A stretch of 64,000 nucleotides of DNA from a virus, in IMG/VR virus record IMGVR_UViG_3300014158_000003, positions 1 through 64,000 of that record; one strand, 5' to 3'. The notes under the pieces were generated by a model. That model saw only the letters and a list, made by a program, of their open reading frames with translations, was not told the DNA's origin and ran no database searches. Each line of letters begins with the position of its first letter. Position 1 is the first letter of the stretch. The translations under genes and the position numbers were made by a program. Shown piece by piece: positions 24,386-61,603 of the stretch.

Positions 24386-24610
24386 TCACGCCCCGACGCG
24401 GTCGATCGCGAGCTTGGTGACCAGCATCGCGCCCGAGCCCGCGAGTAGGGCGCCCCAAGTCGGGGCCCGCAGGGTGTACGCCAGGAGCCCCGCCGCCGCG
24501 CCGGTCATCACCGCGGCGAGGATGGGGGTGGCGGCGGGGCCCGGGGCGTCCCCCACTCGGCCGAGTGCGAACCCGGCCACCGACCTGCCCCCGCGCGAGA
24601 CGTGCTCCAT
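24386..24610 (-). CDS. Small 2-TM protein with shared N-terminal tag
   Basis: MEHVSRGGRSVAGFALG then two hydrophobic helices; extended -10 TGgTAGTCT 6 nt before ATG. Confidence 0.7.
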   Translation of the reverse strand: MEHVSRGGRSVAGFALGRVGDAPGPAATPILAAVMTGAAAGLLAYTLRAPTWGALLAGSGAMLVTKLAIDRVGA

Positions 24611-24641
24611 GGCTCGAGACTACCACGACTCCGGCGGCGAC

Positions 24642-25256
24642 TCACTCGCGCGGCAGCGTGGCGCGGGCCACTTCGGCGGCGATCTGCCGGGCGACCGCCA
24701 GCCGGTGCTGCGTCTTGACGAGCGCCGCGTCGCACCGGCCGCTCTCGACGGCCGCGAGCTCGGTGCCCTCGGGATTGTCCGCGCACCACACGCTCCGGGC
24801 CAGCCGGAGCCACCGGCGCGTGGCGAGCGAGGGGTCGCACGCCTGGTAGCGGTCGGTGTGGGCGATGGAGAGCTGCAGGTACCCCCAGCTCCTGCCGCTG
24901 TCGCCGCGCGCGCACCGGTGGTTGCCCGTCTCCCACGCCCCGTGCACGGCGATGAGCGCCATGGTCAGCGCGCGGCTCTGGTAGAGCGGGTCCATCCCGT
25001 TGACGGCGCCCACGATGGCGACGGCGATCTCGCGCGCGTCGCCGATGCGATCGTAGTGGCCGGCAGGAGGCTCGCTGGCCTGCCGGGCCAGCTCCCTCGG
25101 AGTGAGTTCGCGCTCCGGGACCCGAGCCATCGCGGCGAGCACCTCGTCCACGGTCACGAGGTCCGCCGCCGGCGGCGACGCGTGGGCGGGCGTCCGCCCG
25201 ACGAGCGTCATGGTGACCAGTACAGCGGCTTGAACGAGCGATTGTTTCAGGTTCAT
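24642..25256 (-). CDS. Secreted lysozyme/SLT-like protein
   Basis: Signal peptide ending AHA; WETG...GDSGRSWGYLQL lytic-transglycosylase-like motif. Confidence 0.6.
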   Translation of the reverse strand: MNLKQSLVQAAVLVTMTLVGRTPAHASPPAADLVTVDEVLAAMARVPERELTPRELARQASEPPAGHYDRIGDAREIAVAIVGAVNGMDPLYQSRALTMALIAVHGAWETGNHRCARGDSGRSWGYLQLSIAHTDRYQACDPSLATRRWLRLARSVWCADNPEGTELAAVESGRCDAALVKTQHRLAVARQIAAEVARATLPRE

Positions 25257-25313
25257 CCAAACCCCTCTACCGTTTGAGCCCGGTCTAGGGCAAGCTATCT
25301 CTTCAGTAAGGCC

Positions 25314-25598
25314 ATGCCGGACGTCCCGCTCGCCGACACGTGCGTCTGCGGGGTCCCGCACTGGCACAAGTTCATCGCTCCCTCCGAGAAGCTGGCCAAG
25401 GGCGGCTCGGGCTCGATGTCCGCCGCGACGCCGTTTCTCTGGTGCCGCAAGTGCGGGTGCCTTCGCTTCATGCTCGAGTCGCACTGGCAGGTGCCGCTCG
25501 ACCGCGCGGGCGACGTCGCGCACTCGGTGCCGCTCAGCGAGGAGCCCGACGAGCCGCCGACGAGTCCGGGCACCCCGGGCGCGAAGGGGCGCCGCTAG
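25314..25598 (+). CDS. Small Zn-binding hypothetical protein
   Basis: CVC...H and CRKCGC motifs. Confidence 0.55.
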   Translation: MPDVPLADTCVCGVPHWHKFIAPSEKLAKGGSGSMSAATPFLWCRKCGCLRFMLESHWQVPLDRAGDVAHSVPLSEEPDEPPTSPGTPGAKGRR

Positions 25599-28050: not shown

Positions 28051-28061
28051 CGCGGGCGCCG

Positions 28062-30003: not shown

Positions 30004-30306
30004 CTACTTGACGATCGCGGCTACGATGCCGCCCGCGACCGCGGTCGCGACGAGCGGCTTCCAGCTCCGCGCGAGCCGCTCGCCGGCGACGCCGAGACTG
30101 AGGCCGGTCCCCTCGCCGAAGAGGGCCGTCGCCGCGACGGCCGCCAGACCGCTGGCGAGCGTGCCGCCGAGGAAGGCGCCCATCTTGCCGGTCGGCGCGG
30201 AGAGGGCGCCGCCGTGGTCCGCGGCGGGCTTGACGTAGGTGCTCTGCGGGAACGGCGCGCTGACGCCGAACGTGACCGGCCGGCCACCGAGACGGATGCT
30301 CTCCAT
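30004..30306 (-). CDS. Tagged 2-TM membrane protein
   Basis: MESIRLGGRPVTFGVS tag; hydrophobic helices. Confidence 0.7.
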   Translation of the reverse strand: MESIRLGGRPVTFGVSAPFPQSTYVKPAADHGGALSAPTGKMGAFLGGTLASGLAAVAATALFGEGTGLSLGVAGERLARSWKPLVATAVAGGIVAAIVK

Positions 30307-30342
30307 GCCGGAGAGCGTACGCCAGTTCGGGCGGGTCGTCTA
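30307..30342 (-). promoter_or_regulatory. Leaderless promoter
   Basis: TAGACG-17-TACGCT-7 nt-ATG; identical layout at 30919-30954. Confidence 0.65.
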
Positions 30343-30918
30343 CGCGCTGCGGCTGCGCGCGAGGACCACCAGCCCGACGCCCGCGACGACGGCGGCGCCG
30401 CCCGCGGCGAGCAGCGGGGCCCTGTTCTCCGCGAGCCAGCCGAAGAAGCCGCCGGACGGCGGCGCGTCGGGCGCCGACGGCGTCGCGGGGGCGCGGGTCG
30501 CCGCTGAGCGGCCCGACGAGGTCGACGGTTTCACCTTCGCGGCGGCGAGGCGCTGCGCCACTTGGTACTGGTTGACCATGTCCAGGGCGATGGCCTTCGC
30601 CGCGTCGACGTCGGCCTGCGTCGCTGAGGGGCCGCTGTTGACGTTCGCGAGCTTGCCGTTGTCCACCCACGCGAGGTGGGTCGCGCCCATGACCGTCGAG
30701 TCGTTGCCCGATAGCGCGTCGATGGCGGGACCGACGGAGCCGACGGCGGCCGTCCCTGCAGTGAGCAGCGCCGCGACCGCACCGCCCGGGTTGGTGATGG
30801 TGCCGCTAGTGTACTGCGTGACCGCGGCCTGCAGCGCCGCGATCCCTGGGCCGATGGCGTCGGGCGCGCCCACGCCGAAGCCGGTGACCCGGAAACCGCC
30901 GCGTTGGAGACTCTCCAT
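30340..30918 (-). CDS. Tagged protein with C-terminal TM anchor
   Basis: MESLQRGGFRVTGFGVG tag; C-terminal hydrophobic helix + basic tail. Confidence 0.75.
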   Translation of the reverse strand: MESLQRGGFRVTGFGVGAPDAIGPGIAALQAAVTQYTSGTITNPGGAVAALLTAGTAAVGSVGPAIDALSGNDSTVMGATHLAWVDNGKLANVNSGPSATQADVDAAKAIALDMVNQYQVAQRLAAAKVKPSTSSGRSAATRAPATPSAPDAPPSGGFFGWLAENRAPLLAAGGAAVVAGVGLVVLARSRSA

Positions 30919-30954
30919 GCCGGTTAGCGTACGCCGCTCCGGTCTCAGCGTCTA
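30919..30954 (-). promoter_or_regulatory. Leaderless promoter
   Basis: TAGACG(30954-49)-17-TACGCT(30931-26)-7 nt-ATG. Confidence 0.65.
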
Positions 30955-31577
30955 TGCGGTACCGCCGCCGAGAGCAGTCGGGCGTAGGGAGAGAGCACGC
31001 CGAGGACGATGACGCCGCCGACGACGCTGCCGCCGACGATGAGCGCCGTCTTGTGGTCCTTGAACCACCGGCTCAAGTCGTCGAAGGGGTTGTGGATGTT
31101 CGACGGGTCGGTGTCCGCATAAGCCTTCTCGCCGAAGGTTTGTGGCACCAGGTGCGAGGGGACGTCCTCGGGTGGTTTCGCGTCGGCGGCCCGCGTCGCC
31201 GTATCGAGGCGGTCGAAGAGGTTTTTCCAGTCTCCCTTGACCGTGGGCGCGCTGCTCGGGGGGTAACCTTGCTGTACGGCCTTCTGTAAACTTTCCCACG
31301 ACGTACTGTTCAGTGTGAACGTGCCCACGTTCGCGAGTGCCGCCTGGTAGCGCGCCTGCAGAGCCTTCCAATCGCTGGTCCAGTCCGCGAACGCCTTAGG
31401 ATCCAAAGACGACCACTTCGACGCGAACGCGTTGTACGCCGCACCGAGCTTCTGCATCCGCGCGGCCCACTGCACCTTCGACGTCGCGAGGTCGTCGTCG
31501 CTCACATACAGGCCGGTCTCGGAAAAACCGACACCGAACCCAGCAACCGTCACGCCGCCGCGCCGGACGGTCTCCAT
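30945..31577 (-). CDS. Tagged protein with C-terminal TM anchor
   Basis: METVRRGGVTVAGFGVG tag; GGAGG RBS; C-terminal ALIVGGSVVGGVIVLGVL. Confidence 0.75.
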   Translation of the reverse strand: METVRRGGVTVAGFGVGFSETGLYVSDDDLATSKVQWAARMQKLGAAYNAFASKWSSLDPKAFADWTSDWKALQARYQAALANVGTFTLNSTSWESLQKAVQQGYPPSSAPTVKGDWKNLFDRLDTATRAADAKPPEDVPSHLVPQTFGEKAYADTDPSNIHNPFDDLSRWFKDHKTALIVGGSVVGGVIVLGVLSPYARLLSAAVPHRR

Positions 31578-31972
31578 CAGCGCCTCCTCTTCTTGAGGAA
31601 CGTCCGGTGCGCGACCTCGTCGAGGATCCAGCCCGTGATCGCTCCGGCCACGCTCATGATGACCGCCTCTTTCCACGGCGAGCGGTACTCCGGCTCCTTC
31701 GGGGCCTCCGCGCCGAGGCCGGCGTTCGTTCGCCTCCGCAACAGTTCCGCCATCTCGCGCGCGGTGCGCTGCGTGGGCGCGATCCCGCCTCCCGGCTCGG
31801 TGCAGCCGCCGCCCTCGACGAACTCGTCGCCGCGCCCCGCGGCGACGAGCCGCTCCATCGCGGCGAGTTTCGCGCCCGGCTCGCGCCAGTTCGGCGACCA
31901 GAGGGCGCCCACGCCGAAGCCGGCGACCGAATGGCCGTTGCGCTGGACGTGCTCTTGCTGCACGCCGGTCAT
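31577..31972 (-). CDS. Tagged protein with C-terminal hydrophobic helix
   Basis: EHVQRNGHSVAGFGVG tag; ends KKRRR. Confidence 0.7.
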   Translation of the reverse strand: MTGVQQEHVQRNGHSVAGFGVGALWSPNWREPGAKLAAMERLVAAGRGDEFVEGGGCTEPGGGIAPTQRTAREMAELLRRRTNAGLGAEAPKEPEYRSPWKEAVIMSVAGAITGWILDEVAHRTFLKKRRR

Positions 31973-31976: not shown

Positions 31977-32582
31977 TCACCAGTCCGGCAGCTCGGGCGG
32001 ATCGTTCCGAAGCTGGGCGACCAGGTAGAACTCGATGAGCCGCTGCAAGTCGGACACGTCGACGACCCCCGATGACCAAGCTCGGTCGGCTGCTTCTAGC
32101 GCCCGGTAGTACGCGCGCGGCGCGTACTTCATCCTCTGCGGCACCGGACGCTCTCCGGGGAGCTCTCTGCCTAGCCGCTGGCTCATGACCAGGTACGAAA
32201 CCGCCCGCGCGGTGCGCCCGTTGCCGTCGTCGAACGGGTGGATCCACGCCAATCGCCACATGATGAACGCCGCTGCAAAGAGGGCGTCATTCGAGCCGTT
32301 GACGTAATTGCACGCCTCCTGCGTCAGGCGAGGCAAGTCTTCGTGTGGAGGTGGTACGTGGCTGGACCCGAAGATCTCGACGTCGTCGCTCGTGCGCCAT
32401 CGGCCGGCGCTAGGGAGGATATCTCTCATTGCAGCCTGGTGGAGGCTGAGGGTCATTCGCGGGGTCAGCGTTTGATGCGCAGGCGACCGCACCCACCGCT
32501 GCACCATGCGTAACTGAGCTAGACCGCCCTCAGCCTCGAGAATCTCCGACTCGCTCTCGTCGTCGTCGAACCCCCACCCCAT
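31977..32582 (-). CDS. fic: Fic-family AMPylase
   Basis: Canonical HPFDDGNGRTAR motif. Confidence 0.9.
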   Translation of the reverse strand: MGWGFDDDESESEILEAEGGLAQLRMVQRWVRSPAHQTLTPRMTLSLHQAAMRDILPSAGRWRTSDDVEIFGSSHVPPPHEDLPRLTQEACNYVNGSNDALFAAAFIMWRLAWIHPFDDGNGRTARAVSYLVMSQRLGRELPGERPVPQRMKYAPRAYYRALEAADRAWSSGVVDVSDLQRLIEFYLVAQLRNDPPELPDW

Positions 32583-32758
32583 CAACGAACCGCGCGGCGT
32601 CGCCGCATTCTCTCCGCCGCGATGTCAACGATCTCGCGCGTCACTCGCGCGTTCTCCAGGCCGATGTTCCCTGCCACGAAGTTGCGCGCCTGCTCCTCGC
32701 GCTCCGCCTCCGTCATCGGGCGAGACTCTCGGATCAGTCGAGCGAGTTCGCGCGTCAC
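32582..32758 (-). CDS. Putative Fic antitoxin (VbhA-like), 58 aa, not in ORF track
   Basis: Own translation VTRELARLIRESRPMTEAEREEQARNFVAGNIGLENARVTRE...; TGATG overlap with fic; promoter TTGCGC-17-TACACT upstream. Confidence 0.65.
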   Translation of the reverse strand: MTRELARLIRESRPMTEAEREEQARNFVAGNIGLENARVTREIVDIAAERMRRRRAVR

Positions 32759-32889
32759 GGTAGGTCAGTGTAGCTCACGCACGAGTCTGGCGCAAAGACG
32801 CGCGCCCTCTACGGGCGATCGACACCGACGCGCGGCCCGCGCGCGATCGTGCTTTCGTAGCAGCGTCTCGTAGCAGCGCCAGCATCGCA

Positions 32890-33061
32890 CGCGCGGTACG
32901 CTGCGGGGGCGGTGCAGCCGCCACCCTCGACCAAATCGTCGCCGCGCCCCGCGGCGACGAGCCGTTCCATCGCGACGAGCTTCGCGCCCGGTGTGCTCCA
33001 GCCCGGCGATCGACTGGTCGTTGCGCTGGACGTGCTCCTGCACGCGGCCCCAGCGTATCAC
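32890..33061 (-). pseudogene. Degenerate copy of the 5' part of the 31577-31972 gene
   Basis: Near-identical DNA to about 31800-31980, lost ATG, about 29-nt frameshifting deletion. Confidence 0.8.
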
Positions 33062-33486
33062 ACCTGAAGTGGGGTCGACGTCTCCGGTCGCTTGGGCCCT
33101 TTGAGCCAAGGCTTGAGGTCCATGTAGTCCGGAAGCGCGAACACGTTGCGCTCCGTCATGCAGGCTGGGGTCATCAGCGTCAGGCGCAAGAAGAACGGGC
33201 AGTGCTTGGCCGACCGCACCAGAAACACTGGTGCAGGTGCCGGTCCGATGCTCCGCGTCCACGCGGGCGGGTCGTCCCCGTTTCTCCACGCGAGGAGTTC
33301 CACGAGTGAGGCGTAAACGGCGCGCGCGCGAACGTACGGGAAGTCGGGGGGTGGGGCGTCCGACCACGAGAAGTCAGCACGCGAGGCGTCCTTGATGATC
33401 TGGCAGACCGTCAGGTCGCTGTCGTCGATGTCGCGCAGTGCAGCGACGACGAGTTCGCGTGGGTTCAAGGAAAATGCTGGTCTCAT
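33058..33486 (-). CDS. Hypothetical protein, resembles antitoxin partners of nucleotidyltransferase toxins
   Basis: LVELLA...PPAWT..IGPAPAPVFL...TP....RNVF pattern; family call from memory. Confidence 0.5.
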   Translation of the reverse strand: MRPAFSLNPRELVVAALRDIDDSDLTVCQIIKDASRADFSWSDAPPPDFPYVRARAVYASLVELLAWRNGDDPPAWTRSIGPAPAPVFLVRSAKHCPFFLRLTLMTPACMTERNVFALPDYMDLKPWLKGPKRPETSTPLQV

Positions 33487-34516: not shown

Positions 34517-34905
34517 AGTTCGAACCACGCCGCGGTCAAGCCATCGGCCGCATCGTCATCAAGCCGTCGCGATCGTCCATCCTCAGGCCGGATCAGACCA
34601 AGGGGATCTCGAAGTTCGTGATCCTCGACGCGGTCGGTCCCGATCTCCTGGCCAAGGGCTTGAAGGTGGGTGACGTCATCGTTCCGCGGGCGGTCGGCAA
34701 CGTCATGATGGACGACGGCGCCTCGTTCCGGCCGACCGTCAACGAGGAGGACATCTTGCTCGTCGTGCGCGACTGGTCGAGCCTCGACGAGTTTCACGTG
34801 CAGGTCGACAACGGCACGAGGTACGTGCCCTTCAGCGACGCGCTGGCCGCCAAGTCGCTCGGAGCGATCAGCGAGGCGCAGGACGCCAACTCGGCGGCGG
34901 CATGA
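34513..34905 (+). CDS. groES: Divergent GroES-like co-chaperonin
   Basis: KFEP....., SSILRPD mobile loop, AVGPD...LKVGDVI, VNEEDILLVV. Confidence 0.6.
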   Translation: MKFEPRRGQAIGRIVIKPSRSSILRPDQTKGISKFVILDAVGPDLLAKGLKVGDVIVPRAVGNVMMDDGASFRPTVNEEDILLVVRDWSSLDEFHVQVDNGTRYVPFSDALAAKSLGAISEAQDANSAAA

Positions 34906-35597
34906 GCCGGATCGTCAGCGCGTACGACCCGACGGCGGTCGCCCGACTGCTCCAGCGCAGCGGCGGGTGCGGCTGTCGCGAGCCCGCAGCCGCGCGCGTC
35001 GTCGCCGAGCACACGGTGCGGTCGTCGCGCCGGCGCCGGGTGAGAGACGACGCGCACGAGAACGCGCTCGCCGACGCCGGAGCCGACCCGGTCGTCCTCG
35101 GCGCGGGCAACGGGTCGAAGTGTCGGCCGTTCTTGATGGTCCACAAGGATCCAGAGAGGTTCGCCGCGTGCAACGCGCTCGCCGACTCGATCGGGCCGCT
35201 CGACACACCGAAGAAGGCGTTCAAGTTGATCCACGAAGCCATCGGCGACGAGGTCAACGAGGTCTTCGGGATCGTCACGCTCGACCTGCACCTGCGCATG
35301 AAGAGCGTGGCCGAGACGGGTCGCGGCGAGCCGGCCGCCGTGCTGGCGCCCATGGTCCCGACGCTGCAGGCGGCACTCATCGACGGCGCGCATGCCGTGG
35401 TTGTTTTTCATTGTCACCCCTCTGGGATAGAGGCAGAGCCGAGCGACGCGGACAAGGAGACGACCGAGGCGTTCGCGGACGCGTTCGACACCGTCGGTGT
35501 CGGTCTGCTCGACCACATCATCCTAGGAGGGTCCGTCGAGAAACCGTCCTACTTCAGTTTCTTGGAGGCGGGTCTCTTGCCCCCGCTGCCAGAGTAG
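34902..35597 (+). CDS. radC: RadC-like JAB domain protein
   Basis: E...HCHPSG...PSDAD...LLDHIILG. Confidence 0.85.
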   Translation: MSRIVSAYDPTAVARLLQRSGGCGCREPAAARVVAEHTVRSSRRRRVRDDAHENALADAGADPVVLGAGNGSKCRPFLMVHKDPERFAACNALADSIGPLDTPKKAFKLIHEAIGDEVNEVFGIVTLDLHLRMKSVAETGRGEPAAVLAPMVPTLQAALIDGAHAVVVFHCHPSGIEAEPSDADKETTEAFADAFDTVGVGLLDHIILGGSVEKPSYFSFLEAGLLPPLPE

Positions 35598-38158: not shown

Positions 38159-38341
38159 ATGCGCTTCGCCATCTTCATGAGGGTCACCGTCGACGCGTCG
38201 GGCGAGCCGCAGGCGGTCGACTGGGCGAGGAAGTTCGAGAAGCTGCTCAAGAACCCGATGGCGAAGACGGCGATCGTGGCCGAGGGGATCAAGATGGTCG
38301 GCGAGCCGGTGGCGCTGCAGCCGAAGCGGGAGGACCCGTGA
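38159..38341 (+). CDS. Small hypothetical protein
   Basis: AGGAG RBS; MRFAIFMRV start. Confidence 0.6.
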   Translation: MRFAIFMRVTVDASGEPQAVDWARKFEKLLKNPMAKTAIVAEGIKMVGEPVALQPKREDP

Positions 38342-38979
38342 CCAGGGCCGAATACGAGAAACCGGAGGGCGCGTGCTCGTACGGCTCGTGCCTCAAGAAG
38401 GCGATCGAGGGAGGCCGGTGCGGCCGGCACCACCGGTTCGCCTTCAAGAGCCGCGTGAGATTCGGCGGCGAGAGCCGCGAGAAGGTCCAGCGGGTGCGGT
38501 TCGGGACCGACGTCGGCGACCCGCGCGAGGCCCTCGTCGAGGCCCTCGCGGGAGACGACGCGCTCGCCGTCGTGGACGCGCTCGACGTCTATCTGGATAT
38601 CCCGGTCGGGCTCCAGCTGTCGGTCCGAAACCCAGACGCCGAGCGGGACCAGGCGATCCGGGAGCGAGACGAGGCGGTCGCGCGCGCGGAGAGAGCCGAG
38701 CAAGGGCTGAATGGATCGCAGGTGTCCGAGCCGGTGTCGCCGGTGCAACCGGAACCGCCGTCGAGCGCCTCGTCGCTGCCACCAACGTCGCCCGACGTGT
38801 ACACGCAGAACGACATCGCCAACGGCGTGCCCGAGTCGACCGACGAGATCGTCGGCGTCGCGGACAACCTCAGGGTCGCTGCGGCTTCGCTGCGCGTGGC
38901 TGTCAGGACGCTCGCGGACGTCGCCGCGTCGAAGCTCGTCGCGGCGGTCGCTAAGTTCAAGCGCGCTCAGCGAACCTGA
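38338..38979 (+). CDS. Hypothetical protein with CxxxxC...CxxH motif and capsid-like N-terminal segment
   Basis: Contains GGESREKVQRV, shared with the 45641 ORF. Confidence 0.6.
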   Translation: MTRAEYEKPEGACSYGSCLKKAIEGGRCGRHHRFAFKSRVRFGGESREKVQRVRFGTDVGDPREALVEALAGDDALAVVDALDVYLDIPVGLQLSVRNPDAERDQAIRERDEAVARAERAEQGLNGSQVSEPVSPVQPEPPSSASSLPPTSPDVYTQNDIANGVPESTDEIVGVADNLRVAAASLRVAVRTLADVAASKLVAAVAKFKRAQRT

Positions 38980-47029: not shown

Positions 47030-47629
47030 ATGCAGCCGAAAAGCGAGAACGTCCGGGACCTGGCGATTTGGGCGCCGAAGATCGCCTACGCGATGGTGGT
47101 CGGGGTCCCGCGCGTCCCGTTCGTCGTCGACATCCCGATCCAGTTCACGTCGAGCGTCGTCGATGCGCCGTACATCGAGGCGAGCTTCGACAACAACCTC
47201 ACGCAGGACACGCTTGTCGAGAAGATCGCGTTCACGCTCTTCCAGCAGAACTCGTTTCCTGGGAGCCCGTTCCAGAGCCTGTACTTCAACCAGTTGAAGG
47301 GGCAGACGGGCGTCGGCGTGAAGTTCGATGTCTACGGGGCGCCCCGCTACAGCGTGCAGGACACACCGATCGACCTCGCGAACATGGCCGACGTCCTGGC
47401 CGTCACGTGGCCCAACGGCTGGCCGCTCCCGAAGCAGTCGAACGTCAAAGTGTCGGCCGTCCTGTTCCAGACGCCGGTGAGCGTACCTTTCGACGTCAAC
47501 ATAACTTTCCTCGGTTGGAGTGCGTTGGACGCGGAAATTGACTCACTCTCGGACGACGATGCGCGCTGCCGGCTGCGCAAGCTCGGATTCGAGGTCCCGG
47601 ACCTGGAAGTTCTTCTGACCAGGCCGTGA
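47030..47629 (+). CDS. Beta-rich protein, candidate second/minor capsid protein
   Basis: GGAGG RBS; alternating hydrophobic strands; follows the candidate MCP. Confidence 0.5.
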   Translation: MQPKSENVRDLAIWAPKIAYAMVVGVPRVPFVVDIPIQFTSSVVDAPYIEASFDNNLTQDTLVEKIAFTLFQQNSFPGSPFQSLYFNQLKGQTGVGVKFDVYGAPRYSVQDTPIDLANMADVLAVTWPNGWPLPKQSNVKVSAVLFQTPVSVPFDVNITFLGWSALDAEIDSLSDDDARCRLRKLGFEVPDLEVLLTRP

Positions 47630-48714
47630 CTACTCGATTCACCTTCTACTGCCACACCAACCGGGTGAACGGCAAACAATACGTCGGCCAAACAGCCTGG
47701 ACGATGGAGGAGCGTTGGAAATCGCACGTCACGTCAGCGAAACTACATCAGGGCTGTCGGGTATTCGGGGCGGCCATTCGCAAGTACGGCCCGGACGCGT
47801 TCGATCACGAGATCCTCGAAGTCGTCGTCTGCACGCAGCAAGAGGCTGACCTCATTGAGACGGAATGGATCAAGCGAAAAGGAAGTCGTGTACCGTTCGG
47901 GTACAACCTTACGGCTGGCGGCGGTAGCCACGGTCTCCTCCACGAGGACTCCAAGCGTTTGATAGGAGAAGCGTCGAGAAAACGCTTGGCTGGCATGACG
48001 CCGGAGCAGCGAACGGAGTTCTTCAAAAAGAACATTCACATCTACACGCCGGAACGTTTGGCGCGTCATGCGGAGCGGTTTCGATCCAAAGAACACCGCG
48101 AGAAGGTGACAGCCGACCAGAAATACTTTTGGTCGAAGCTATCGCCCGAAGAGAGGCTCGCTCGCGCTAAGCATATGCACGCTGGCATTTCGGAAGAAAA
48201 GAAACACGAGCGCACGCGCAAAGCGTGGGCCAAACTGACACCAGAAAAGCGCGCAGAACGCATCCGAAACGCCAGCGAGGCCAACGTTCGGGCGTGGAGT
48301 CCAGAGAGATCGAAGAAGAGGAGCGAGGCGCAGTCTGCAAGACACGCAGCGATTCCGCCTGAACAGCGTCGCGAGGTCGTCAACAAGGCGTGGGTCACTC
48401 GTCGCGCGAAATACGGGCAGAGCGGCATGAAGAACCCAGCACCAGCCCGAAGTGGTTACGTCAAGCTGACTCCGGAGGAACTGTCAAAACGCCGCAGAAA
48501 AAGTTGGGCGAACATGACGCCGGAAGCCTACGACGAGCGGGTACGCAAGACTCGGGAAGGCAAACGGCTGGCGCGTCTGGCGAAGTCCGGTCAGCAGCTC
48601 GACGCCGAACTCGTCCCCTTCGTCCGCCACTGGCACAAGCGCGGCCACTCGATCCGGTCGATCGCCCTCGCCTTCGACGTGTCCACCAATGAGATCGAGA
48701 GGGCGGTGGCCTGA
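47626..48714 (+). CDS. GIY-YIG homing endonuclease
   Basis: TFYCHTNRVNGKQYVGQT..R, AIRKYG, E..WI, GYNLTAGG; TPEQR repeats; C-terminal HTH; lower GC. Confidence 0.85.
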   Translation: MTTRFTFYCHTNRVNGKQYVGQTAWTMEERWKSHVTSAKLHQGCRVFGAAIRKYGPDAFDHEILEVVVCTQQEADLIETEWIKRKGSRVPFGYNLTAGGGSHGLLHEDSKRLIGEASRKRLAGMTPEQRTEFFKKNIHIYTPERLARHAERFRSKEHREKVTADQKYFWSKLSPEERLARAKHMHAGISEEKKHERTRKAWAKLTPEKRAERIRNASEANVRAWSPERSKKRSEAQSARHAAIPPEQRREVVNKAWVTRRAKYGQSGMKNPAPARSGYVKLTPEELSKRRRKSWANMTPEAYDERVRKTREGKRLARLAKSGQQLDAELVPFVRHWHKRGHSIRSIALAFDVSTNEIERAVA

Positions 48715-49661
48715 TGCCCGGCAGAGACGCCAAGGCCCGAAACTGCGGCAGCGCAGAACTCGGCGAGCGCGAGGCGAAGTTGATCCGCCTGGCGCGGTCT
48801 CCCGGAGGAATCGCGCGCGGGATCCGCACGCGCTTCTACCCCGGTCGCCACGAGGTCGTCCCCGCATCGCTCGACCCGTACGTCGCGCTGATCAGCAGCG
48901 ACCCCTGGGGCTCCCCGGTCGGCACGGGACTCCTGGTCCCGTCGACGCCGACCGGGTCGCTCGTCCCTGCCGGGGCCTCGCCGTCGCAGTACCGGTACCT
49001 GTTTCTGCTCGCCCGCGAGCAGTTCGCGTCCGGCAACACGGGCGCGCGGCTCACCGGCATCCGGCAGTACGCGGAACTCATGGCGACGGTGGCCGGCACC
49101 GACGGGTCCCCGAACACCGTCTTCCGCAAGGAGATCACGAGTCCGCTCTGGCACCCGCCCGACGGCAACGTCTCCTGGCACGTGATGGTGATCGCGAAAA
49201 ATCGGATGGTGACGCGCAACGTCCAGAACGCCGACAGCCTCAAGTTCCGAGACGCGTTCGGCCCGTGCCTGCTCTTCGAGACCTTCGCGGGCCCGCAGTT
49301 CGCGCCGACCGCGTACGCGCCGCCGAACGGCGGCCGCCCGTGGGGCAAGCCCCTCGGCGGCGTGAGCCTGGGCAACATGCACGACCTGCGGTACCGCTGG
49401 CGCACCGGCTACCTCGAGCAGATGCTCGACATCCCGGTGCCGCTGCCGTGCGACGTCGCGCTCTTCGCGAGCGTCCGGCAGAACGACCCGCTGACCAACC
49501 CGTGCGCGGGGATCCTGACCTCCTGCCAGCTCGCGGCGCTCGGTCCCGAGGACCAGTTCCTGACCTCGTTCTGCGGGTCCGCGCAGTACGGCCGCATTGC
49601 GGGGTCGCTCGTCTTCAGCGAGACTTCGAGGGACCCCATGGACGAGGAGGGCGCGGCATGA
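48714..49661 (+). CDS. Putative structural protein
   Basis: Coupled ORF in virion module; beta/Pro-rich. Confidence 0.65.
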   Translation: MPGRDAKARNCGSAELGEREAKLIRLARSPGGIARGIRTRFYPGRHEVVPASLDPYVALISSDPWGSPVGTGLLVPSTPTGSLVPAGASPSQYRYLFLLAREQFASGNTGARLTGIRQYAELMATVAGTDGSPNTVFRKEITSPLWHPPDGNVSWHVMVIAKNRMVTRNVQNADSLKFRDAFGPCLLFETFAGPQFAPTAYAPPNGGRPWGKPLGGVSLGNMHDLRYRWRTGYLEQMLDIPVPLPCDVALFASVRQNDPLTNPCAGILTSCQLAALGPEDQFLTSFCGSAQYGRIAGSLVFSETSRDPMDEEGAA

Positions 49662-50599
49662 CCACCGGAGTCGGAGGGTGCGGAGGCGGGTGCCGGGGCG
49701 GGTGCGGGGACCTGTCGCACGCGGTGGTCCGGGCGCCTCGGGCGCCGGGCAGGCTGACGCCGACGCCGGCGCAGGCGGCCAACATCGCGCAGAGCAACGG
49801 CTCGTACGGCGACTGGGTCACCGACGTCCCGGTCCAGGGACCGACCGACGAGGGGATCCGCAGGGCGGGCTGCTGGTGGAAGAACAACGTGCTCGACAAG
49901 GTCACCGACGACCAGGGCGCCATGGTGCCCCGGTGGACGCAGTCGTCCCTACTCTGCCTCGACGGCCGGCCGCTGCAGTCGGGCGTCGGTGGCGAGACGG
50001 TCCGGCGCCGCGGGGTGAGTGCGGGCGCGCTCGGCGCGGACCCAGCGCCCAACGCGCCGCCCGCGGCGACGACGACCAAGCCCGCGGCCTCGCTGCCCGC
50101 ACCGCCCGGCATCTGGTCCAAGCTCACCGCCGACCAGTCGCACTGGGTCGCGACCACGCTGATCGCGCTCAACGACTTCATCGTCAAGGCCGGCAACAAG
50201 CTCTGCGCGAGCTGGCCCGCGGACCTCTTGAAGGACGACGCGTCGGCGACCGCGAAGATGCCCGCGGCGGTCGGGTGCTTCCAGAGCTGGTACAACCTGA
50301 ACCTCCAGCCGGACGCGCCGCTGCGCACCGACGGCACGCTCGACGAGCGGACCGCGTGCGCGCTCGTGGCGACCACGGGCCTGCACGCGAACGACTTCCC
50401 GACGCCGTACCCGGGAGTCCTCAAGTGCGGGGGCCTGTCCCTCTACGCGAAGGTCGGCATCGGCGCCGGCGTCGCGGTCGCCGTGGGCGGGGCCATCGCG
50501 GCGGTCGCGGCGGCGAGCCACAAGAAGAAGAAGGCCGCACCCGCGGCCGCAGCGGAGGCGCGGCGCGGCGCCCAGTACGGAAGGGAGCGACGACGATGA
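49658..50599 (+). CDS. Tagged protein with PG-binding-like domain and C-terminal TM
   Basis: Internal ETVRRRGVSAGALG; FQSWYN...LRTDGTLDERT; C-terminal hydrophobic helix + KKKK. Confidence 0.7.
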   Translation: MTTGVGGCGGGCRGGCGDLSHAVVRAPRAPGRLTPTPAQAANIAQSNGSYGDWVTDVPVQGPTDEGIRRAGCWWKNNVLDKVTDDQGAMVPRWTQSSLLCLDGRPLQSGVGGETVRRRGVSAGALGADPAPNAPPAATTTKPAASLPAPPGIWSKLTADQSHWVATTLIALNDFIVKAGNKLCASWPADLLKDDASATAKMPAAVGCFQSWYNLNLQPDAPLRTDGTLDERTACALVATTGLHANDFPTPYPGVLKCGGLSLYAKVGIGAGVAVAVGGAIAAVAAASHKKKKAAPAAAAEARRGAQYGRERRR

Positions 50600-50943
50600 A
50601 TCAGCTCGTGAGGTCCAATCTCGGCGGCGACACCCTGCGGCGCGGAGGTGTGCGGATCGGCTGGCTCGGCGACGCGCCGGCGACGAGCGCGCCGGCCACG
50701 ACTCCGCCCCCGGTGCCCGCCGCGGGGCCGGCGCCGGCGACGCCCGCCGCGACTGCGCCCGCGGCCGCACCCGCGTCAGCCCCGACGAGCCCGCCCGCCG
50801 CTGGCGACAAGACCAAGGGCGACGCCGCAGCGGGTCCCCTGGCGGCCCTCGAGCGCCTGCCGACCCTCGCGAAGGTCGGCATCGGCGTGGGTGTCGCCGC
50901 GGTCGTCGTCGGCATCGGCGCGGCCATCGCGGCGGCAAAATAG
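50596..50943 (+). CDS. Tagged Pro/Ala-rich protein with C-terminal TM
   Basis: DTLRRGGVRIGWLGD; AKVGIGVGVAAVVVGIGAAIAA similar to previous ORF's anchor. Confidence 0.7.
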   Translation: MNQLVRSNLGGDTLRRGGVRIGWLGDAPATSAPATTPPPVPAAGPAPATPAATAPAAAPASAPTSPPAAGDKTKGDAAAGPLAALERLPTLAKVGIGVGVAAVVVGIGAAIAAAK

Positions 50944-50952: not shown

Positions 50953-51834
50953 GTGCACGTCGAGTCCTGGGAGAGCGTGACGCCGCCGAGGCGGTTCGCT
51001 CGGGCGCTGGGCCTCGCGGCCACGAGCGGTGGGCGCGCGACCCGCAACTCGGTCCTCGACGCCTTCGTCAAGGTGCAGTCGCCGTGGGAGGGCGTCGCGC
51101 ACGTCATGTACACCGACAAGCTCGGTCTGGTGACCACGGCGATCGGCTACTTGATTGATTCGAACAAGATCGCGACGCCGATGGCCGACATGAGCGGCTA
51201 CGGCCCGGCGCTCGTCATCCCCTGGGTGCACAAGTCCGACGGCAAGCCCGCGACGCAGGCCGAGATCATCCAGGACTGGCAGACGGTCAAGAGCGCGCAC
51301 AACCAGTCGGGCGGCTACGACCTGCCGAACGACAAGAAGATCACGCAGCTCGAGATCCCCGATCTGGTCGTGCAGGACCTGACCGCATCGCGGATGGCCG
51401 ACAACGAGAAGGTGCTGCTCCAGTCGTTTCCGAACTTCACGAGCTTCCCCGCCGACGCGCAGATGGCCATCCACGGCATGGCGTGGGCCATGGGCGCGGG
51501 GTTCGTGCCCGCCTACGGCTTTCACGCGTTCGCCGACGCCGCCAACCGCGGCGACTGGGCGACGGCGAAGGCGCACAGCGACTTCAAGGGCGTCTCGCCC
51601 GAACGCAAGGCGGGGCAGGACAAGATGTTCGACAACGCGGCCGCCGTCGTCGCGAATAAGCTCGACCCGGACAAGCTCTGGTACCCGCAGAGCGTCCCGA
51701 CGACGGCGATCGGTCACGCGCTCGCCCAGCTGCGGCGGCCGGCGGTCGCGGCGGCAGTCACGCTGGCCGTCGCGGCGGTCGGCGGCGGGATCTACCTGGC
51801 GACGCGCCCGGTGCCCAGGCGGGTGCCCGCGTGA
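50953..51834 (+). CDS. Membrane-anchored lysozyme (GH24-like)
   Basis: WEGVAHVMYTDKLGLVTTAIG; paralog of 25595-26308; C-terminal TM. Confidence 0.75.
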   Translation: MHVESWESVTPPRRFARALGLAATSGGRATRNSVLDAFVKVQSPWEGVAHVMYTDKLGLVTTAIGYLIDSNKIATPMADMSGYGPALVIPWVHKSDGKPATQAEIIQDWQTVKSAHNQSGGYDLPNDKKITQLEIPDLVVQDLTASRMADNEKVLLQSFPNFTSFPADAQMAIHGMAWAMGAGFVPAYGFHAFADAANRGDWATAKAHSDFKGVSPERKAGQDKMFDNAAAVVANKLDPDKLWYPQSVPTTAIGHALAQLRRPAVAAAVTLAVAAVGGGIYLATRPVPRRVPA

Positions 51835-52154: not shown

Positions 52155-53203
52155 GTCGCGAGCCCGCCCACCAGCGACCGGGCGCGCGCGTCCGGTACAA
52201 CTACACGGACGGCCCGGTCCCCGCGGGCACGTTGGGTACGATCCTCGGGTTTCTGCCGCGGAGCCAGCAGGCTCAGATCCGGTGGGACGACGACACCGTC
52301 AACAACCACACGCCCGACGAGTACGACGTGGTCCCGCGCGGGACGAGGCGACCGATTGGTGAAGCGCAAGACGTTCTCGCCGCCAAATATTTCGAACGCG
52401 GTGCTCGACTGCGTATCCGCAGCAAGGGGGCAAACGGGCAACCGTTCGAGGCGTTCTGGTTCTTGGTTCCGTCTGAGATGACTCCTGAGGAGGTTGCACT
52501 GCAGTTCGCGCAGACCGTGCAACCAGGCATGCTCCTCGAGATCGAGGAAGGCGGCGGTGTGAAGCGGACATTTCGGCAGAACGGTGACGGAACAGTCACG
52601 CCCGTACCGAACGTCTCTGGGCGCCTTCGGGAGATAGGTGAGTCACGCCGCCAGACGAAGTGGTCCGACTGGGACATCCTCGACGCCGTCGAGCGCCGCC
52701 ACGGGATGACGCCCGAGGCGAAAGCCCGCGCCTTCGAACTCATCGACCTCGGGTACATCGACGCGGCGGGGACGTGGGAGCTCACGCCCAGAGGGCGTCG
52801 CGCCTGGGAGCGCGACGCGCCGAAGGGTGGGTGGTCGAACAGGCACCAGCAGGCGCCCCGACTCGAAGCGCGTCGACAGATGCGCCGGCAAACCGTTCAC
52901 GCGGCACCCACTAGCGGCTGGACCTCCGGCAAGCGACCGAGCCACGCCGAGATCTGGGCGGACGGCAAGCCGATCACCGTCGCTAAATCCGGGCGCAAGT
53001 GGACGGTCACCGTCATGGGCCGACCCGTCGTCAACGGCGCGTCCGGCGGGCTCACGTTCGAGGGTCGCTCGGACTACGTCGACGGCCTCACACAGGCGAG
53101 GTTCAACAGCAAGGGCGACGCCGACTCCGTCGCGCACAAGATCGGCCGGTACATGCTCAACCTCGGTGACTTCGTCCACACGTACGTGGAGCACGTCGGA
53201 TGA
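52151..53203 (+). CDS. Multidomain hypothetical protein with basic linkers
   Basis: GTG at 52151; SH3-like N-terminus; several short domains. Confidence 0.6.
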   Translation: MSREPAHQRPGARVRYNYTDGPVPAGTLGTILGFLPRSQQAQIRWDDDTVNNHTPDEYDVVPRGTRRPIGEAQDVLAAKYFERGARLRIRSKGANGQPFEAFWFLVPSEMTPEEVALQFAQTVQPGMLLEIEEGGGVKRTFRQNGDGTVTPVPNVSGRLREIGESRRQTKWSDWDILDAVERRHGMTPEAKARAFELIDLGYIDAAGTWELTPRGRRAWERDAPKGGWSNRHQQAPRLEARRQMRRQTVHAAPTSGWTSGKRPSHAEIWADGKPITVAKSGRKWTVTVMGRPVVNGASGGLTFEGRSDYVDGLTQARFNSKGDADSVAHKIGRYMLNLGDFVHTYVEHVG

Positions 53204-53517
53204 CCGAGTCCGTCTCCCGCGGCGGCCGCCCGGCGCCAGGCTTCGCCCTGGGCGACGCGTCGCCCGCGTGCGCCGCGTGCCCCGCGGCGCTGCCGTCCGG
53301 GTCGAGCGCGGCGGCCCTGCTCGGCGGCGACTGGCGCGCGCTGCCGCTGGCCGTCGGGCACACGGCCCTGCGCGCGACGCTCGTCGGCGCGGGTCTCTAC
53401 CTCGCCGGCGAGCGCGATCCCAAGCGCCTGGTCAAGAACGCGGCGGCCGGCTCGCTCGCGATTGAGGCGTTCGTGCTCGGGTGGGCGGCTTGGAAGCTGA
53501 GGCATAGCGCGCCCTAG
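53200..53517 (+). CDS. Tagged small membrane protein
   Basis: MTESVSRGGRPAPGFALGD tag; hydrophobic helices. Confidence 0.7.
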   Translation: MTESVSRGGRPAPGFALGDASPACAACPAALPSGSSAAALLGGDWRALPLAVGHTALRATLVGAGLYLAGERDPKRLVKNAAAGSLAIEAFVLGWAAWKLRHSAP

Positions 53518-53541: not shown

Positions 53542-56511
<2,970 letters not shown>

Positions 56512-58882: not shown

Positions 58883-58949
58883 GGCGCGGGGAAAAGCAGC
58901 GGTCACCGGAGCCGGAAGCTGGTAGGATCCCCGAAAAGGAGCGGCGCCC

Positions 58950-59267
58950 ATGGAGCACATCGTCAGAAACGGTCGCCCGGTCAGGTTCGGCCTGGGCGGC
59001 GTCAGTGACGCGGCGGCGCTCGCGCCCGTCTCCCAGAGAGTCGCCGCGAAGATCGCGTCCGTGGCGGTCGGCGCGCTGACGGTCGGCGTGCTCGGGACCA
59101 TGGTCGGGGCGGGCATCTCGCTCCTGGACACCAAGAAGCTGCGCCCCGCCACGGTGGGGCAGGGCGCGGCGGTGGGCGCCGCGCTCGGCGGCGCGATGGG
59201 CCTGTTCACGGAGGTGAGCGTCCGCACCGTCCCCGCTGCGGACGCGAAGGGCGGAGTGTCGACATGA
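58950..59267 (+). CDS. Tagged 2-TM membrane protein
   Basis: MEHIVRNGRPVRFGLG tag; AGGAG RBS. Confidence 0.75.
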   Translation: MEHIVRNGRPVRFGLGGVSDAAALAPVSQRVAAKIASVAVGALTVGVLGTMVGAGISLLDTKKLRPATVGQGAAVGAALGGAMGLFTEVSVRTVPAADAKGGVST

Positions 59268-61603
59268 GGAAGCACCTGATCGGGGCCGGTGAGAGCATCT
59301 CCAGGAACGGGCAGTCGGTCGGCCTGGGCCTCGCGTGCTGGCCGCGCGAGTGGGAGCCCGACCCCGGCGGCGGCCGGGTCGGCGACGTCGGCGTGGGCTT
59401 CCACTTCGACGTCGGCCACCTGATCAAGGGCGCGCTCAAGGACGTGGGCAAGGTCGCCTCCGCCCCGGTGCACATCGCGGTCGAGGCGGTGAAGGACCCG
59501 AAGAAGCTGATCCACGACATCGGCCACGTGGCCAAGGACGTGGTCAAGATCGAGAAGTTCGTGCTCGAACAGGCCGCGGGGATCTGCTCGCTCGTCCCCG
59601 GCCTCGGCACCGCGATCTCGACCGCCATCGCCGCCGGGCTCGCGGTGCTCGAGGGCGGCGGCGTGCTCGAGATCGCGATCAAGATCGCCTACGGCGCCAT
59701 CCCGATCCCGCCCGGCATCAAGACCTTCACGGACCTGGTGCTCGGGGCCGTGCTCGACATCGTGAGCGCGATCCTCAAGGAGGGCACCAACCTCGGCAAG
59801 GTTTTGGAGCGCCTCATCGCCGAGGAGATGGCCAAGGCGCTGCCGGACAACGTCCGGGCCGCGGGCACCACCATGCTCACCGCCCTCACGCCGACGGTGC
59901 TGCAGGCGCTGACCGGCAAGCTGCCCGGCCTGCCGTCGGCCTCGTCGGTCGCGTCGGCGGCGGGGCTACCGGCCGTCCCGTCGGTCTCCTCGATCGCGGC
60001 GGCGCTGCCGACGCCGTCGGTCCCGGGCGTCACCGGGGTCGGCGACAAGGTCGACGACTTCGTGGCCCAGCTGAAAGCGCAGTACGCGGCGATGAACTTG
60101 CCGGCGAGCGTCAAGTCGCAGACCGACCCGGTCTTCAACGCGCTCGTCTCGATGGTCCACTCGATGAACGTGGGCCCCGCGATCCTCCTGACCGTGCGCA
60201 CCGGGATCACCTCGAAGCTGCCCGCCGGCGTCGCGCGCGACGTGGGCCTGCACGTCTTCGACACGCTCGCGCACCTCATCCTGGGCAAGCTGTTCAAGGG
60301 CAAGCCGACGCAGGCCACCGTGACCACCGCGCTCACCCCGGCGCAGCTCACCGCCGTGCACCTCGCGGCCGCTCGCGGCGCGCCGCTGCCGGCGAGTGTC
60401 ACGCCGATCCCGCCGACGGTGGCCGCGTACAAGCCGATCGCCAAGGCCGAGGTGGCGCAGAGCACCGTCGTCTCGGTCCCGGTCATCGCGGTCGACAGCA
60501 GCCCCTACGGGCCCTACCCGCAGCCGAGCGCCGGCGCGACCCCGTCGACCGCGGCGCCCGCGATGGCGCCGCCGCCCGTGCCTGCTGTGAGTGCGTCGAC
60601 GCCGGCGACCGCCGCTGCCGCGCCCATGTCGACGCCGGCGGCCACGTCCCCAGCCGGCACGACCGCGGGCGTCGGCGAGAGCAGCTGCCCGCAGGAGCCG
60701 GTCCCGAGCGGCTGGCGCGTGTGGCAGGGTCCCGTGCCGCCCGAGCTCGTGCAGTTGGCCGTCGAGGTGCGCGACCACGTCCGGCAGTACCCGCGCGGCA
60801 CGATCGCCAAGACGGTCGACTACCGGGGATCCGCGGTCGCCGCCTTCGTGAGCAGCCACACGTGGACGTACCGCAACGGCCAGCTCGTCACCGGGATCTG
60901 CATCCCCGGCGTGTCGCTGCTGGTCCGGCCGACCGCGGACGTCGGCACCAGTCGCGGCGGCGGCGGTGGTGGTGGACGCGGCGGGGGTGGTGGTCGTGGC
61001 GGTGGCGGCGGTGGGGGGCACCCCGGGCGCCCGGGAGGGCGCGGTGGTTTCGACGGGTGGGCAGGCGGCCGGGGGCGCCCGTGGGGTCGGGGCGGCTACG
61101 GCTGGGGGTGGGGCGGCGCGTGGTGGCCGTACGTCGTCGTCACCAGCGACGCCGCGTGCGCGAGCTGGGGTGACCCGATCAGCTTCCCGGCGAAGCTGCT
61201 GTCGGCCGCGCGCGCGACGCTCACCGACTCGGGCTGGGCCCCGGTCGTCGTCCGCGGCTCGGACGGTGGGCTCTACCTGCTCAGCCTCGAGCCCGGCGTG
61301 CCGACGGGGGGGCCGGTCGCGCAGCTCGTCACGATCCGCCCGTGCGTCTCGGTGGGGGTCGGCGACGCGAACGACGACGTCCTCAAGGCGATGGCACTCG
61401 ATCTGCTCGGCCAACTGCAGCGCAGCGTACCGCAGGGCGCGACGCGCGCGGTGAAGAACTTCGCGCAGGCGTGGAACGCCGCGAGCGCCGACTCACAGAT
61501 CGACACCAGCGGCAAGTACACGCAGGAGACCGCGGCGGCGCTCAACGCGGCTTTGAGCGCGCTCGCGCCTGGATCAGGGTCGGCGCCGGCGGCCGTGCTC
61601 TAG
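59264..61603 (+). CDS. Tagged multidomain protein (amphipathic helices, RGG tract, PG-binding-like C-terminus)
   Basis: ESISRNGQSVGLGL tag; domains separated by GVG(D/E). Confidence 0.75.
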   Translation: MRKHLIGAGESISRNGQSVGLGLACWPREWEPDPGGGRVGDVGVGFHFDVGHLIKGALKDVGKVASAPVHIAVEAVKDPKKLIHDIGHVAKDVVKIEKFVLEQAAGICSLVPGLGTAISTAIAAGLAVLEGGGVLEIAIKIAYGAIPIPPGIKTFTDLVLGAVLDIVSAILKEGTNLGKVLERLIAEEMAKALPDNVRAAGTTMLTALTPTVLQALTGKLPGLPSASSVASAAGLPAVPSVSSIAAALPTPSVPGVTGVGDKVDDFVAQLKAQYAAMNLPASVKSQTDPVFNALVSMVHSMNVGPAILLTVRTGITSKLPAGVARDVGLHVFDTLAHLILGKLFKGKPTQATVTTALTPAQLTAVHLAAARGAPLPASVTPIPPTVAAYKPIAKAEVAQSTVVSVPVIAVDSSPYGPYPQPSAGATPSTAAPAMAPPPVPAVSASTPATAAAAPMSTPAATSPAGTTAGVGESSCPQEPVPSGWRVWQGPVPPELVQLAVEVRDHVRQYPRGTIAKTVDYRGSAVAAFVSSHTWTYRNGQLVTGICIPGVSLLVRPTADVGTSRGGGGGGGRGGGGGRGGGGGGGHPGRPGGRGGFDGWAGGRGRPWGRGGYGWGWGGAWWPYVVVTSDAACASWGDPISFPAKLLSAARATLTDSGWAPVVVRGSDGGLYLLSLEPGVPTGGPVAQLVTIRPCVSVGVGDANDDVLKAMALDLLGQLQRSVPQGATRAVKNFAQAWNAASADSQIDTSGKYTQETAAALNAALSALAPGSGSAPAAVL

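Follow-up and report, generated by a model that had tools for sequence, protein, structure and literature searches.

A portable N-terminal peptide on unrelated membrane proteins of an apparently tailless bacterial virus: a candidate virion address tag that ends like the capsid protein arm

Why would a virus begin a set of dissimilar, mostly membrane-anchored proteins with the same short peptide? The question is raised by IMG/VR record IMGVR_UViG_3300014158_000003, a single sequence of 117,319 bp (117 kb; G+C 69%, no N), whose first 64 kb (64,000 nucleotides) form the window analyzed here. Seven open reading frames (ORFs) on both strands, between 24.4 and 59.3 kb, start with a tag of ∼16 residues, E-x-[VIL]-x-R-[GN]-G-x-x-V-x-(G)-F-[GA]-[VL]-[GS], and the last residues of the tag recur on the N-terminal arm of the candidate major capsid protein (MCP). 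We favor, while giving it not quite an even chance, the reading that this peptide would serve as a portable address at the N terminus of virion membrane proteins, mimicking the capsid arm and taking part in docking plus clipping. Judged from its genes, the virus is a member of an undescribed group of large (110 to 125 kb), apparently tailless bacterial viruses, marked by a capsid protein of probable jelly-roll fold, numerous tail-anchored membrane proteins, and the lack of a recognizable terminase. Below, proteins are named by the position at which their ORF begins; G000 is the genome under study, G001, G004, and G005 are related whole genomes, and L-numbers denote related loci.

The original prediction had counted about 10 tagged ORFs. 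A hidden Markov model (HMM) was built from the seven solid instances (Table 1), and all 117,319 bp were searched with it in six-frame translation. The seven scored 23.6 to 32.4 bits and the next best match in the genome 7.3 bits; when each instance was left out in turn, it reached 19.6 to 34.9 bits with a model made from the six others. The best score in 50 triplet shuffles of the genome was 12.0 bits (mean of the maxima, 8.9), so that the motif exceeds the shuffled background, a comparison that had been named in advance as a check. Seven of the predicted instances thus stand well above noise, and three, in 50596, in 59264, and the internal one at 49994, do not. The same six-frame search gave no above-noise match in the 53 kb beyond the window; all seven instances lie within 24 to 59 kb.

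The codons of the tag differ synonymously between copies (GGG, GGC, or GGT for Gly; CGC, AGA, or AGG for Arg; TCG or AGC for Ser) while the residues stay, indicating selection on the protein level and ruling out a nucleotide-level element. A degenerate tag-like remnant, VQEHVQRNDQSIAGLEH (5.1 bits), lies near 33030 in 32765-33367 (minus strand), an unconvincing frame; its start is nearly identical to that of the 31972 tag, and it may be a decayed duplicate. Upstream of two tagged genes and of one G001 ortholog, a sigma-70-like sequence, TAGACG-N17-TACGCT, ends 7 nucleotides (nt) before the ATG, a spacing that suggests leaderless late transcripts. Other tagged genes have Shine-Dalgarno-like sequences in its place. 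A shared promoter was rejected as the explanation of the tag because the element precedes some tagged genes only.

What follows the tag is unrelated from protein to protein. When the tag was removed, none of the 45 pairs among the 10 carriers was significantly similar, and the best E values (0.003 and 0.023) fell on short hydrophobic stretches; full-length paralogy of the carriers, another possibility singled out beforehand, is ruled out. Neither in a set of 10 tagged proteins nor in two tested separately was there a Pfam match above the curated cut-off. With a 19-residue window and a mean Kyte-Doolittle score of ≥1.4 as the criterion, a hydrophobic segment is present in nine of the 10 carriers, six of which have it at the C terminus, often with an Arg/Lys tail behind it, in keeping with the predicted C-terminal helices and basic tails. 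The tag is Gly/Arg rich and has no hydrophobic stretch, and the first hydrophobic window of the carriers begins at residue 26 or later. Signal peptides have an h-region of 7 to 15 hydrophobic residues after a basic n-region, to which Tat signals add S/T-R-R-x-F-L-K and lipoprotein signals a lipobox Cys. By inspection, the tag shows no h-region, no RR-x-FLK, and no lipobox Cys, and no hydrophobic core comes after it; a Sec, Tat, or lipoprotein signal was rejected, as the original prediction had held.

Two protein families illustrate how the tag moves. Protein 31577 has 31 database homologs, and the tag is kept in 30 of the 32 aligned sequences. The majority-residue fraction in this alignment is 0.72 in the tag and 0.75 in the C-terminal anchor, compared with 0.50 in the middle, where the domain is swapped among at least three unrelated versions. 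The second case is protein 49658. Its C-terminal domain is a separate gene in G005, starting MISYGGRPVAGFGV, and is fused behind another domain in G000, G001, and G004, with the tag internal, at the junction; the G004 ortholog reads ESISLGGCGCRGFAL at the position of the internal 49994 tag. This degenerate instance is therefore backed by the clear tags of G004 and G005 at the homologous position, which supports the claim of an internal copy by homology and not by score. In the G001 ortholog of protein 31972, the tag is followed by an additional ∼70 residues, and a second A-G-V-G-I-G then immediately precedes the conserved start, ALWSP. The unrelated cargo, the swapped middle domain, and the split or fused module support the idea, part of the original prediction, that the leader is portable between unrelated proteins.

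A model trained on this genome alone finds the tag in all five complete related records (110 to 125 kb; two with terminal repeats), with 7, 9, 7, 6, and 3 matches at E ≤10 and best E values from 1e-10 to 4e-5. Among the 29 capsid-centered loci, 8 carry it. A second-round model, trained on the same four whole genomes that it then scanned (7,767 open frames of ≥30 amino acids [aa]), gave 20 matches of ≥22 bits (7, 6, 4, and 3 per genome), each located 0 to 7 residues behind a start codon; below these, scores dropped to 17.1, 11.1, 10.1, and 7.3 or less. The most conserved core across relatives is G-G-R-P-V-x-G-F-G-[VL]-G, and the first five residues are often absent from more distant genomes. 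The tag is kept among relatives whose capsid proteins are 63 to 84% identical. Its conservation stops sharply at G-x-G, and the residue that follows varies (A, D, E, Q, G, R, or F).

The link to the shell comes from the 431-aa protein encoded at 45641. It has no match in Pfam, PHROG, or the phage collection, and its relatives form at least 375 clusters at 90% identity (182 representatives at 50%), with IMG/VR contributing 29 loci, whose contigs reach 125 kb. AlphaFold2 gave a predicted local distance difference test score (pLDDT) of 37.5 with 44 close homologs as input; we used instead the model from 85 diverse homologs (pLDDT 87.6; predicted template modeling score, 0.85). The model is a β-sandwich and is not HK97-like. 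Foldseek returned nothing at E ≤0.001 from PDB or BFVD. Exhaustive structural alignment placed at the top, weakly, PBCV-1 (Z 5.8), SPV1 (5.7), EhV (5.6), HHIV-2 (5.4), and PRD1 P3 (5.3), and further down the Orf virus scaffold (5.3), HCIV-1 (5.1), FLiP (4.9), and P23-77 (4.7); these jelly-roll capsid matches are interspersed with carbohydrate-binding jelly rolls. We read the protein as the candidate MCP of a jelly-roll virus, the fold class being likely.

The N-terminal arm of this protein, GGESREKVQRVPFGLG, contains EKVQRVPFGLG, the variant to which the original prediction had pointed, and the variant proves to be deeply conserved. R25, F28, G29, L30, and G31 are invariant in the 44 close homologs, and G29 and G31 are kept in at least 90% of the 85 diverse ones, down to ∼20% identity and amid an otherwise unalignable region. 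A hydrophobic-G-hydrophobic-G motif occurs within the N-terminal part of ∼51 residues in 79 of the 85, compared with a rate of 0.002 per residue in the rest of these proteins; 14 of the 85 have two or more copies, and several of the six homologs without the motif resemble truncated gene calls. Because G-x-G is so deeply conserved on the arm, the end of the tag is an element that the whole MCP family keeps there. In the model, the arm around F-G-L-G (residues 21 to 40) has no secondary structure, at a pLDDT of 76 to 87. A complex prediction that combined MCP residues 36 to 431 with a 36-residue tag alignment scored 0.00, and we count it neither for nor against binding.

Two other proteins of the window resemble the MCP in part. 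The 213-aa ORF 38338-38979 (plus strand) contains a partial copy of the N-terminal part of the MCP (BLASTP E 2e-6, 30% identity over ∼130 residues) that includes the arm, GGESREKVQRVRFGTDVG, with a degenerate G-x-G; this MCP-like part is matched in only one of the 29 related loci (L002). The 199-aa protein 47030-47629 has R-V-P-F in common with the arm at residues 25 to 31 (GVPRVPFVVD), without G-L-G. We also considered G-[VL]-G-D as a conserved polyprotein site in large proteins and rejected it, as none was found in 10 conserved proteins beyond the MCP arm and one membrane helix.

A candidate for the enzyme that would act on the G-x-G end is encoded at 41063-41737. This protein matches Transglut_core (Pfam PF01841) at 24.1 bits (cut-off, 23; E 4.5e-5), as do 19 of the 20 members of its family, and C111, H145, and D161 are invariant in the 20 sequences, leaving a Cys-His-Asp triad intact. 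By sequence it is a member of the transglutaminase-like superfamily and a candidate protease for the tag. The original prediction had likened the presumed clipping to Gly-motif processing by the adenovirus and poxvirus cysteine proteases; the 41063 enzyme is of the transglutaminase fold and not of clan CE. Peptidase_C48 has no match in the genome (its control was positive), and Peptidase_C39 has none (its control matched in seven genomes); Peptidase_C5 has no match in the genome, but its control matched nowhere either. The enzyme itself has no match in the phage collection, and its profile finds no sequence match among solved structures.

The enzyme is as conserved as the MCP (54 to 91% identity in all five complete relatives; 364 database relatives). 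Its gene precedes that of the MCP by 3 to 5 kb in each of the 22 loci with at least 5 kb of upstream sequence and in two of the seven loci with less, and it is found at the same position in both loci with a distantly related MCP. Tag and enzyme, whose co-occurrence in relatives had been proposed as a check, always occur together, the enzyme being present in the five complete relatives and the 22 informative loci. Its residues 190 to 224 consist of an invariant GDFVGM[AS]G, a variable linker, and a conserved DLLYPSI[KR] end, which may be a self-processing site and a targeting tail. A distant homolog occurs in Salisaeta phage SSIP-1, described in the available text of PMC6356626 as a cultured phage that lacks a tail and has an internal membrane. 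The enzyme profile matches its gp34 at E 1e-6 among 57 proteins, with the DCDG, HV, and LD motifs aligned. Since gp34, which has a C-terminal membrane helix, is listed by GenBank as a structural protein, the enzyme family is plausibly virion associated.

How might these parts work together? The tagged proteins would sit in the membrane through their hydrophobic segments, mostly C-terminal ones, which are visible as sequence features. The free N-terminal tag would then present R-x-V-x-F-G-[LV]-G, as the MCP does on its flexible arm. Since tag and arm share this element, one common partner would read both, either a capsomer pocket or the transglutaminase-fold cysteine enzyme, and this common reading would couple the membrane proteins to the growing shell. 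A common reader is the simplest account because the tag is fixed on unrelated membrane proteins and its last residues on the shell arm. With alternating hydrophobic residues on either side, the [GN]-G pair points to a possible β-hairpin that could add to a jelly-roll sheet, an idea that rests on turn propensities. Finally, conservation of the tag breaks off sharply at G-[VL]-G, and a cut behind this G-x-G by the 41063 enzyme would probably remove the tag on maturation.

Several points weigh against this reading. Because the MCP shares only the last 6 to 8 residues of the tag, one partner for tag and arm is something we infer, and the jelly-roll assignment itself depends on weak structural matches (best Z 5.8). 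At ∼16 residues, the conserved span exceeds the usual length of a protease site. By the well-established positive-inside rule, the basic tails C-terminal to the anchor are hard to reconcile with simple N-in insertion. In 10 module proteins (three to four genomes aligned), hydrophobic-G-hydrophobic-G is conserved just at the MCP arm and in one membrane helix. The transglutaminase fold also includes cell-wall peptidases and true cross-linking enzymes; with LysM, M23, and lysozyme-like genes nearby, the substrate of the 41063 enzyme may be the wall instead of the tag. The full 16-residue tag is limited to a close subclade, with none in the two distant loci.

These points leave room for simpler accounts. 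The tag could be a protease leader and nothing else, a propeptide cut after G-[VL]-G by the transglutaminase-fold enzyme, with the MCP arm cut likewise and no docking. The variable residue after the sharp G-x-G boundary, the two or three tandem motif copies of some MCP relatives, and the second G-V-G-I-G that immediately precedes the conserved start of the G001 ortholog all accord with such a leader, as do the invariant triad of the enzyme, its strict synteny with the MCP gene, and the invariant GDFVGM[AS]G near its C terminus, which could be a self-cut site. However, 16 conserved residues that include a turn-like [GN]-G element exceed the needs of a cleavage site, the enzyme might just as well be a peptidase of the cell wall, and large structural proteins have no conserved internal sites; we regard this account as arguable but unlikely. 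The same enzyme could instead be a true transglutaminase that cross-links tags or the MCP arm and so stabilizes the particle. The Transglut_core match with its intact Cys-His-Asp triad would suit that role, and the SSIP-1 homolog is a virion protein according to its record annotation, but the tag has no conserved Gln or Lys, and most microbial members of the transglutaminase-like superfamily are annotated as proteases, making cross-linking very improbable.

Almost all carriers have hydrophobic segments, many being tail anchored without a signal peptide, and in the 31577 family conservation is concentrated at the two ends, tag and anchor. The tag could thus be a membrane-biogenesis or self-association element that governs insertion, topology, or clustering of tail-anchored proteins independently of the MCP and the protease. 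We think this improbable, given that the motif core is also found on the soluble MCP, that the tag is not hydrophobic, and that two tail-anchored module proteins, the LysM protein 39954-41066 and the lysozyme-like protein 50953-51834, have no tag. Least credible, and already disfavored, is a functionless by-product in which a 5′ cassette (promoter plus first codons) was copied before different genes. The upstream TAGACG-N17-TACGCT-N7-ATG common to some tagged genes would fit such copying. Against it, the upstream DNA differs for most tagged genes, the residues are kept despite synonymous codon differences, the tag is conserved among relatives with MCPs that are 63 to 84% identical, and it is more conserved than its cargo.

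The proposed address tag has its closest counterpart in vaccinia virus. There, in the available text of PMC13672803, the short N-terminal tail of A17 holds the D13 double-jelly-roll lattice on the membrane and competes with the N terminus of D13 itself for one site. The I7 cysteine protease clips the A17 tail at a small-residue motif, and cleavage correlates with scaffold release, as stated in the accessible portion of PMC3169552. Similarly, the membrane proteins and the probable jelly-roll MCP studied here share an N-terminal motif, and the gene of a conserved Cys enzyme lies beside the MCP gene. The two systems differ in host (eukaryotic versus bacterial), in the number of tailed proteins (one versus ∼7 to 10), and in motif, MSYLRYY... 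plus the I7 cut motif A-G-X in vaccinia virus versus ...G-F-G-[VL]-G here; the enzyme, too, is transglutaminase fold and not I7, there being no Peptidase_C48-like match in the genome. A specific form of the address-tag reading would be a poxvirus-like switch: the N-terminal tails of several tail-anchored proteins would mimic the MCP arm, compete for one capsomer pocket, and nucleate the shell on the membrane, after which the transglutaminase-fold protease would clip behind G-x-G. We consider a switch of this kind distinctly doubtful.

Other systems resemble the tag in one respect or another. Adenain cuts at (M/I/L)XGG-X and (M/I/L)XGX-G in several virion precursors, so that, as here, many unrelated proteins in the virion of a jelly-roll virus share one glycine-based motif, with the virion membership of the carriers being predicted in our case. 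The tag differs in being strictly N-terminal, in its 16 residues, and in a P4 Val; V-x-G-F-G fits (M/I/L)XGX-G only if Val is accepted at P4, and variants that lack the first Gly (V-T-F-G-V-S) do not fit. The capsid targeting sequence of phage T4 is an N-terminal peptide on internal proteins that the gp21 prohead protease removes after L/I-x-E. Both are short N-terminal peptides on unrelated proteins, addressing them to the particle and then removed in T4, as is proposed here. T4, however, has soluble cargo, an HK97-fold head, and a cut after Glu, in contrast to membrane carriers, a jelly-roll MCP, and G-x-G, and a T4-type sequence was rejected: the tag ends in G-x-G and not in Glu, the capsid model is not HK97-like, and there is no Terminase_6N match in the genome. 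Double-glycine leaders are cut by papain-like C39 peptidase domains. They likewise are N-terminal leaders of 15 to 25 residues with spaced hydrophobic residues, a glycine end, and a papain-superfamily cysteine peptidase as reader, but the tag ends in G-[VL]-G/S and not G-G, its cargo is membrane proteins, and no ABC exporter was seen; with no Peptidase_C39 match in the genome, this system was rejected as well.

SSIP-1 shares with our virus the tail-anchored structural gp34 (JN880423, L086 21296-22210), the distant homolog of the 41063 enzyme, and has an N-proximal G-[LM]-G in ORF36, gp37, ORF52, and gp53, with a hydrophobic end in ORF36, ORF52, and gp53. Unlike our virus, it has a genome of 43.8 kb, and its capsid protein has no detectable similarity (best E 0.45). 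The 16-residue tag was not seen by eye at SSIP-1 protein starts, on which the tag model was not scored.

Literature searches, with supplements outside their scope, found no description of the tag or the virus group, in line with the original prediction, which did not recognize the tag as a described family. Address peptides and maturation sites built on glycine have precedents (T4, adenovirus, poxvirus, double-glycine leaders). Not described in the papers found are this tag, its carriers, its sharing with a jelly-roll MCP arm, and a transglutaminase-fold partner.

TABLE 1 Tag instances, upstream element, and genes of the conserved block in the window
Feature	Position	Strand	Remarks
Tag MEHVSRGGRSVAGFALG	24560..24610	-	Starts 74-aa membrane protein, ORF 24386-24610; 32.1 bits
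Tag MESIRLGGRPVTFGVS	30259..30306	-	Starts 100-aa protein with two hydrophobic segments, ORF 30004-30306; 25.5 bits
Tag MESLQRGGFRVTGFGVG	30868..30918	-	Starts 192-aa tail-anchored protein, ORF 30340-30918; 26.7 bits
Tag METVRRGGVTVAGFGVG	31527..31577	-	Starts 210-aa tail-anchored protein, ORF 30945-31577; 23.6 bits
Tag MTGVQQ-EHVQRNGHSVAGFGVG	31907..31972	-	Starts 131-aa tail-anchored protein, ORF 31577-31972; 32.4 bits
Tag MT-ESVSRGGRPAPGFALG	53200..53253	+	Starts 105-aa protein, ORF 53200-53517; 29.5 bits
Tag MEHIVRNGRPVRFGLG	58950..58997	+	Starts 105-aa membrane protein, ORF 58950-59267; 27.0 bits
Degenerate internal tag ETVRRRGVSAGALG	49994..50035	+	Domain boundary of 313-aa tail-anchored protein 49658-50599; score below noise, positional homology
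Possible degenerate tag DTLRRGGVRIGWLG	50629..50670	+	Near start of 115-aa tail-anchored protein 50596-50943; not above noise; uncertain
Possible degenerate tag ESISRNGQSVGLG	59291..59329	+	Residues 10-22 of 779-aa protein 59264-61603; 5.2 bits, partial match; uncertain
MCP N-arm motif SREKVQRVPFGLG	45695-45733	+	Residues 19-31, within 45641-46936
TAGACG-N17-TACGCT-N7-ATG	30307-30345 and 30919-30960	-	Also in L067, upstream of 11286
LysM protein	39954-41066	+	C-terminal membrane helix
Transglutaminase-like enzyme, 224 aa	41063-41737	+	Transglut_core match
Arg/Lys-rich protein, 1112 aa	42204-45542		Conserved block
MCP candidate, 431 aa	45641-46936	+	Jelly-roll model
Beta-rich protein, 199 aa	47030-47629	+	Conserved block
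Beta-rich protein, 315 aa	48714-49661		Conserved block
Lysozyme-like protein	50953-51834		C-terminal helix; conserved block

The MCP and enzyme genes belong to a conserved block that spans 36 to 62 kb of the window (Table 1) and also encodes collagen-like fiber proteins and an M23 peptidase. Three large collagen-like proteins with G-P-T or G-x-y repeats, probably fibers, are encoded at 12353-17929 (minus strand), 53542-56511 (plus), and 61625-62677 (plus), and G+C rises to 0.80 in one collagen-like region. Between the capsid-module genes 47030-47629 and 48714-49661 lies a GIY-YIG homing-endonuclease-like gene with a C-terminal helix-turn-helix (47626-48714, plus). Just upstream of the structural block, 34902-35597 (plus) encodes a RadC-like JAB domain protein (E 1e-21), and the tagged gene cluster is adjoined by 31977-32585 (minus), whose product has an HPFxDGNGR motif that we take to be Fic-like. 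Terminase_6N and Pox_A32 have no profile match anywhere in the 117-kb genome. The sole hint of a packaging ATPase is a match to FtsK_SpoIIIE below the threshold (11.4 bits, E 0.006) in a 693-aa ORF outside the window (G000:C1:81125-83206, minus). A host search of genome contigs returned just two, of 5.7 to 5.8 kb and both from one Candidatus Binatia bin, and no host was assigned.

How virion membrane proteins are chosen and how the shell is tied to the membrane are poorly understood, even in model phages such as PRD1. The finding supplies a short, portable, conserved peptide, a matching capsid element, and a candidate enzyme, all testable with synthetic genes and no virus culture. If the address-tag reading is true, the assembly logic of poxviruses and adenoviruses would extend to a large, widespread, undescribed group of bacterial viruses of soils and wetlands, and the tag could be used for loading proteins into membrane-lined particles. 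If the poxvirus-like switch is also true, membrane-shell coupling guided by peptide tails would be ancient and general in membrane-containing jelly-roll viruses, operating here with a nonhomologous protease.

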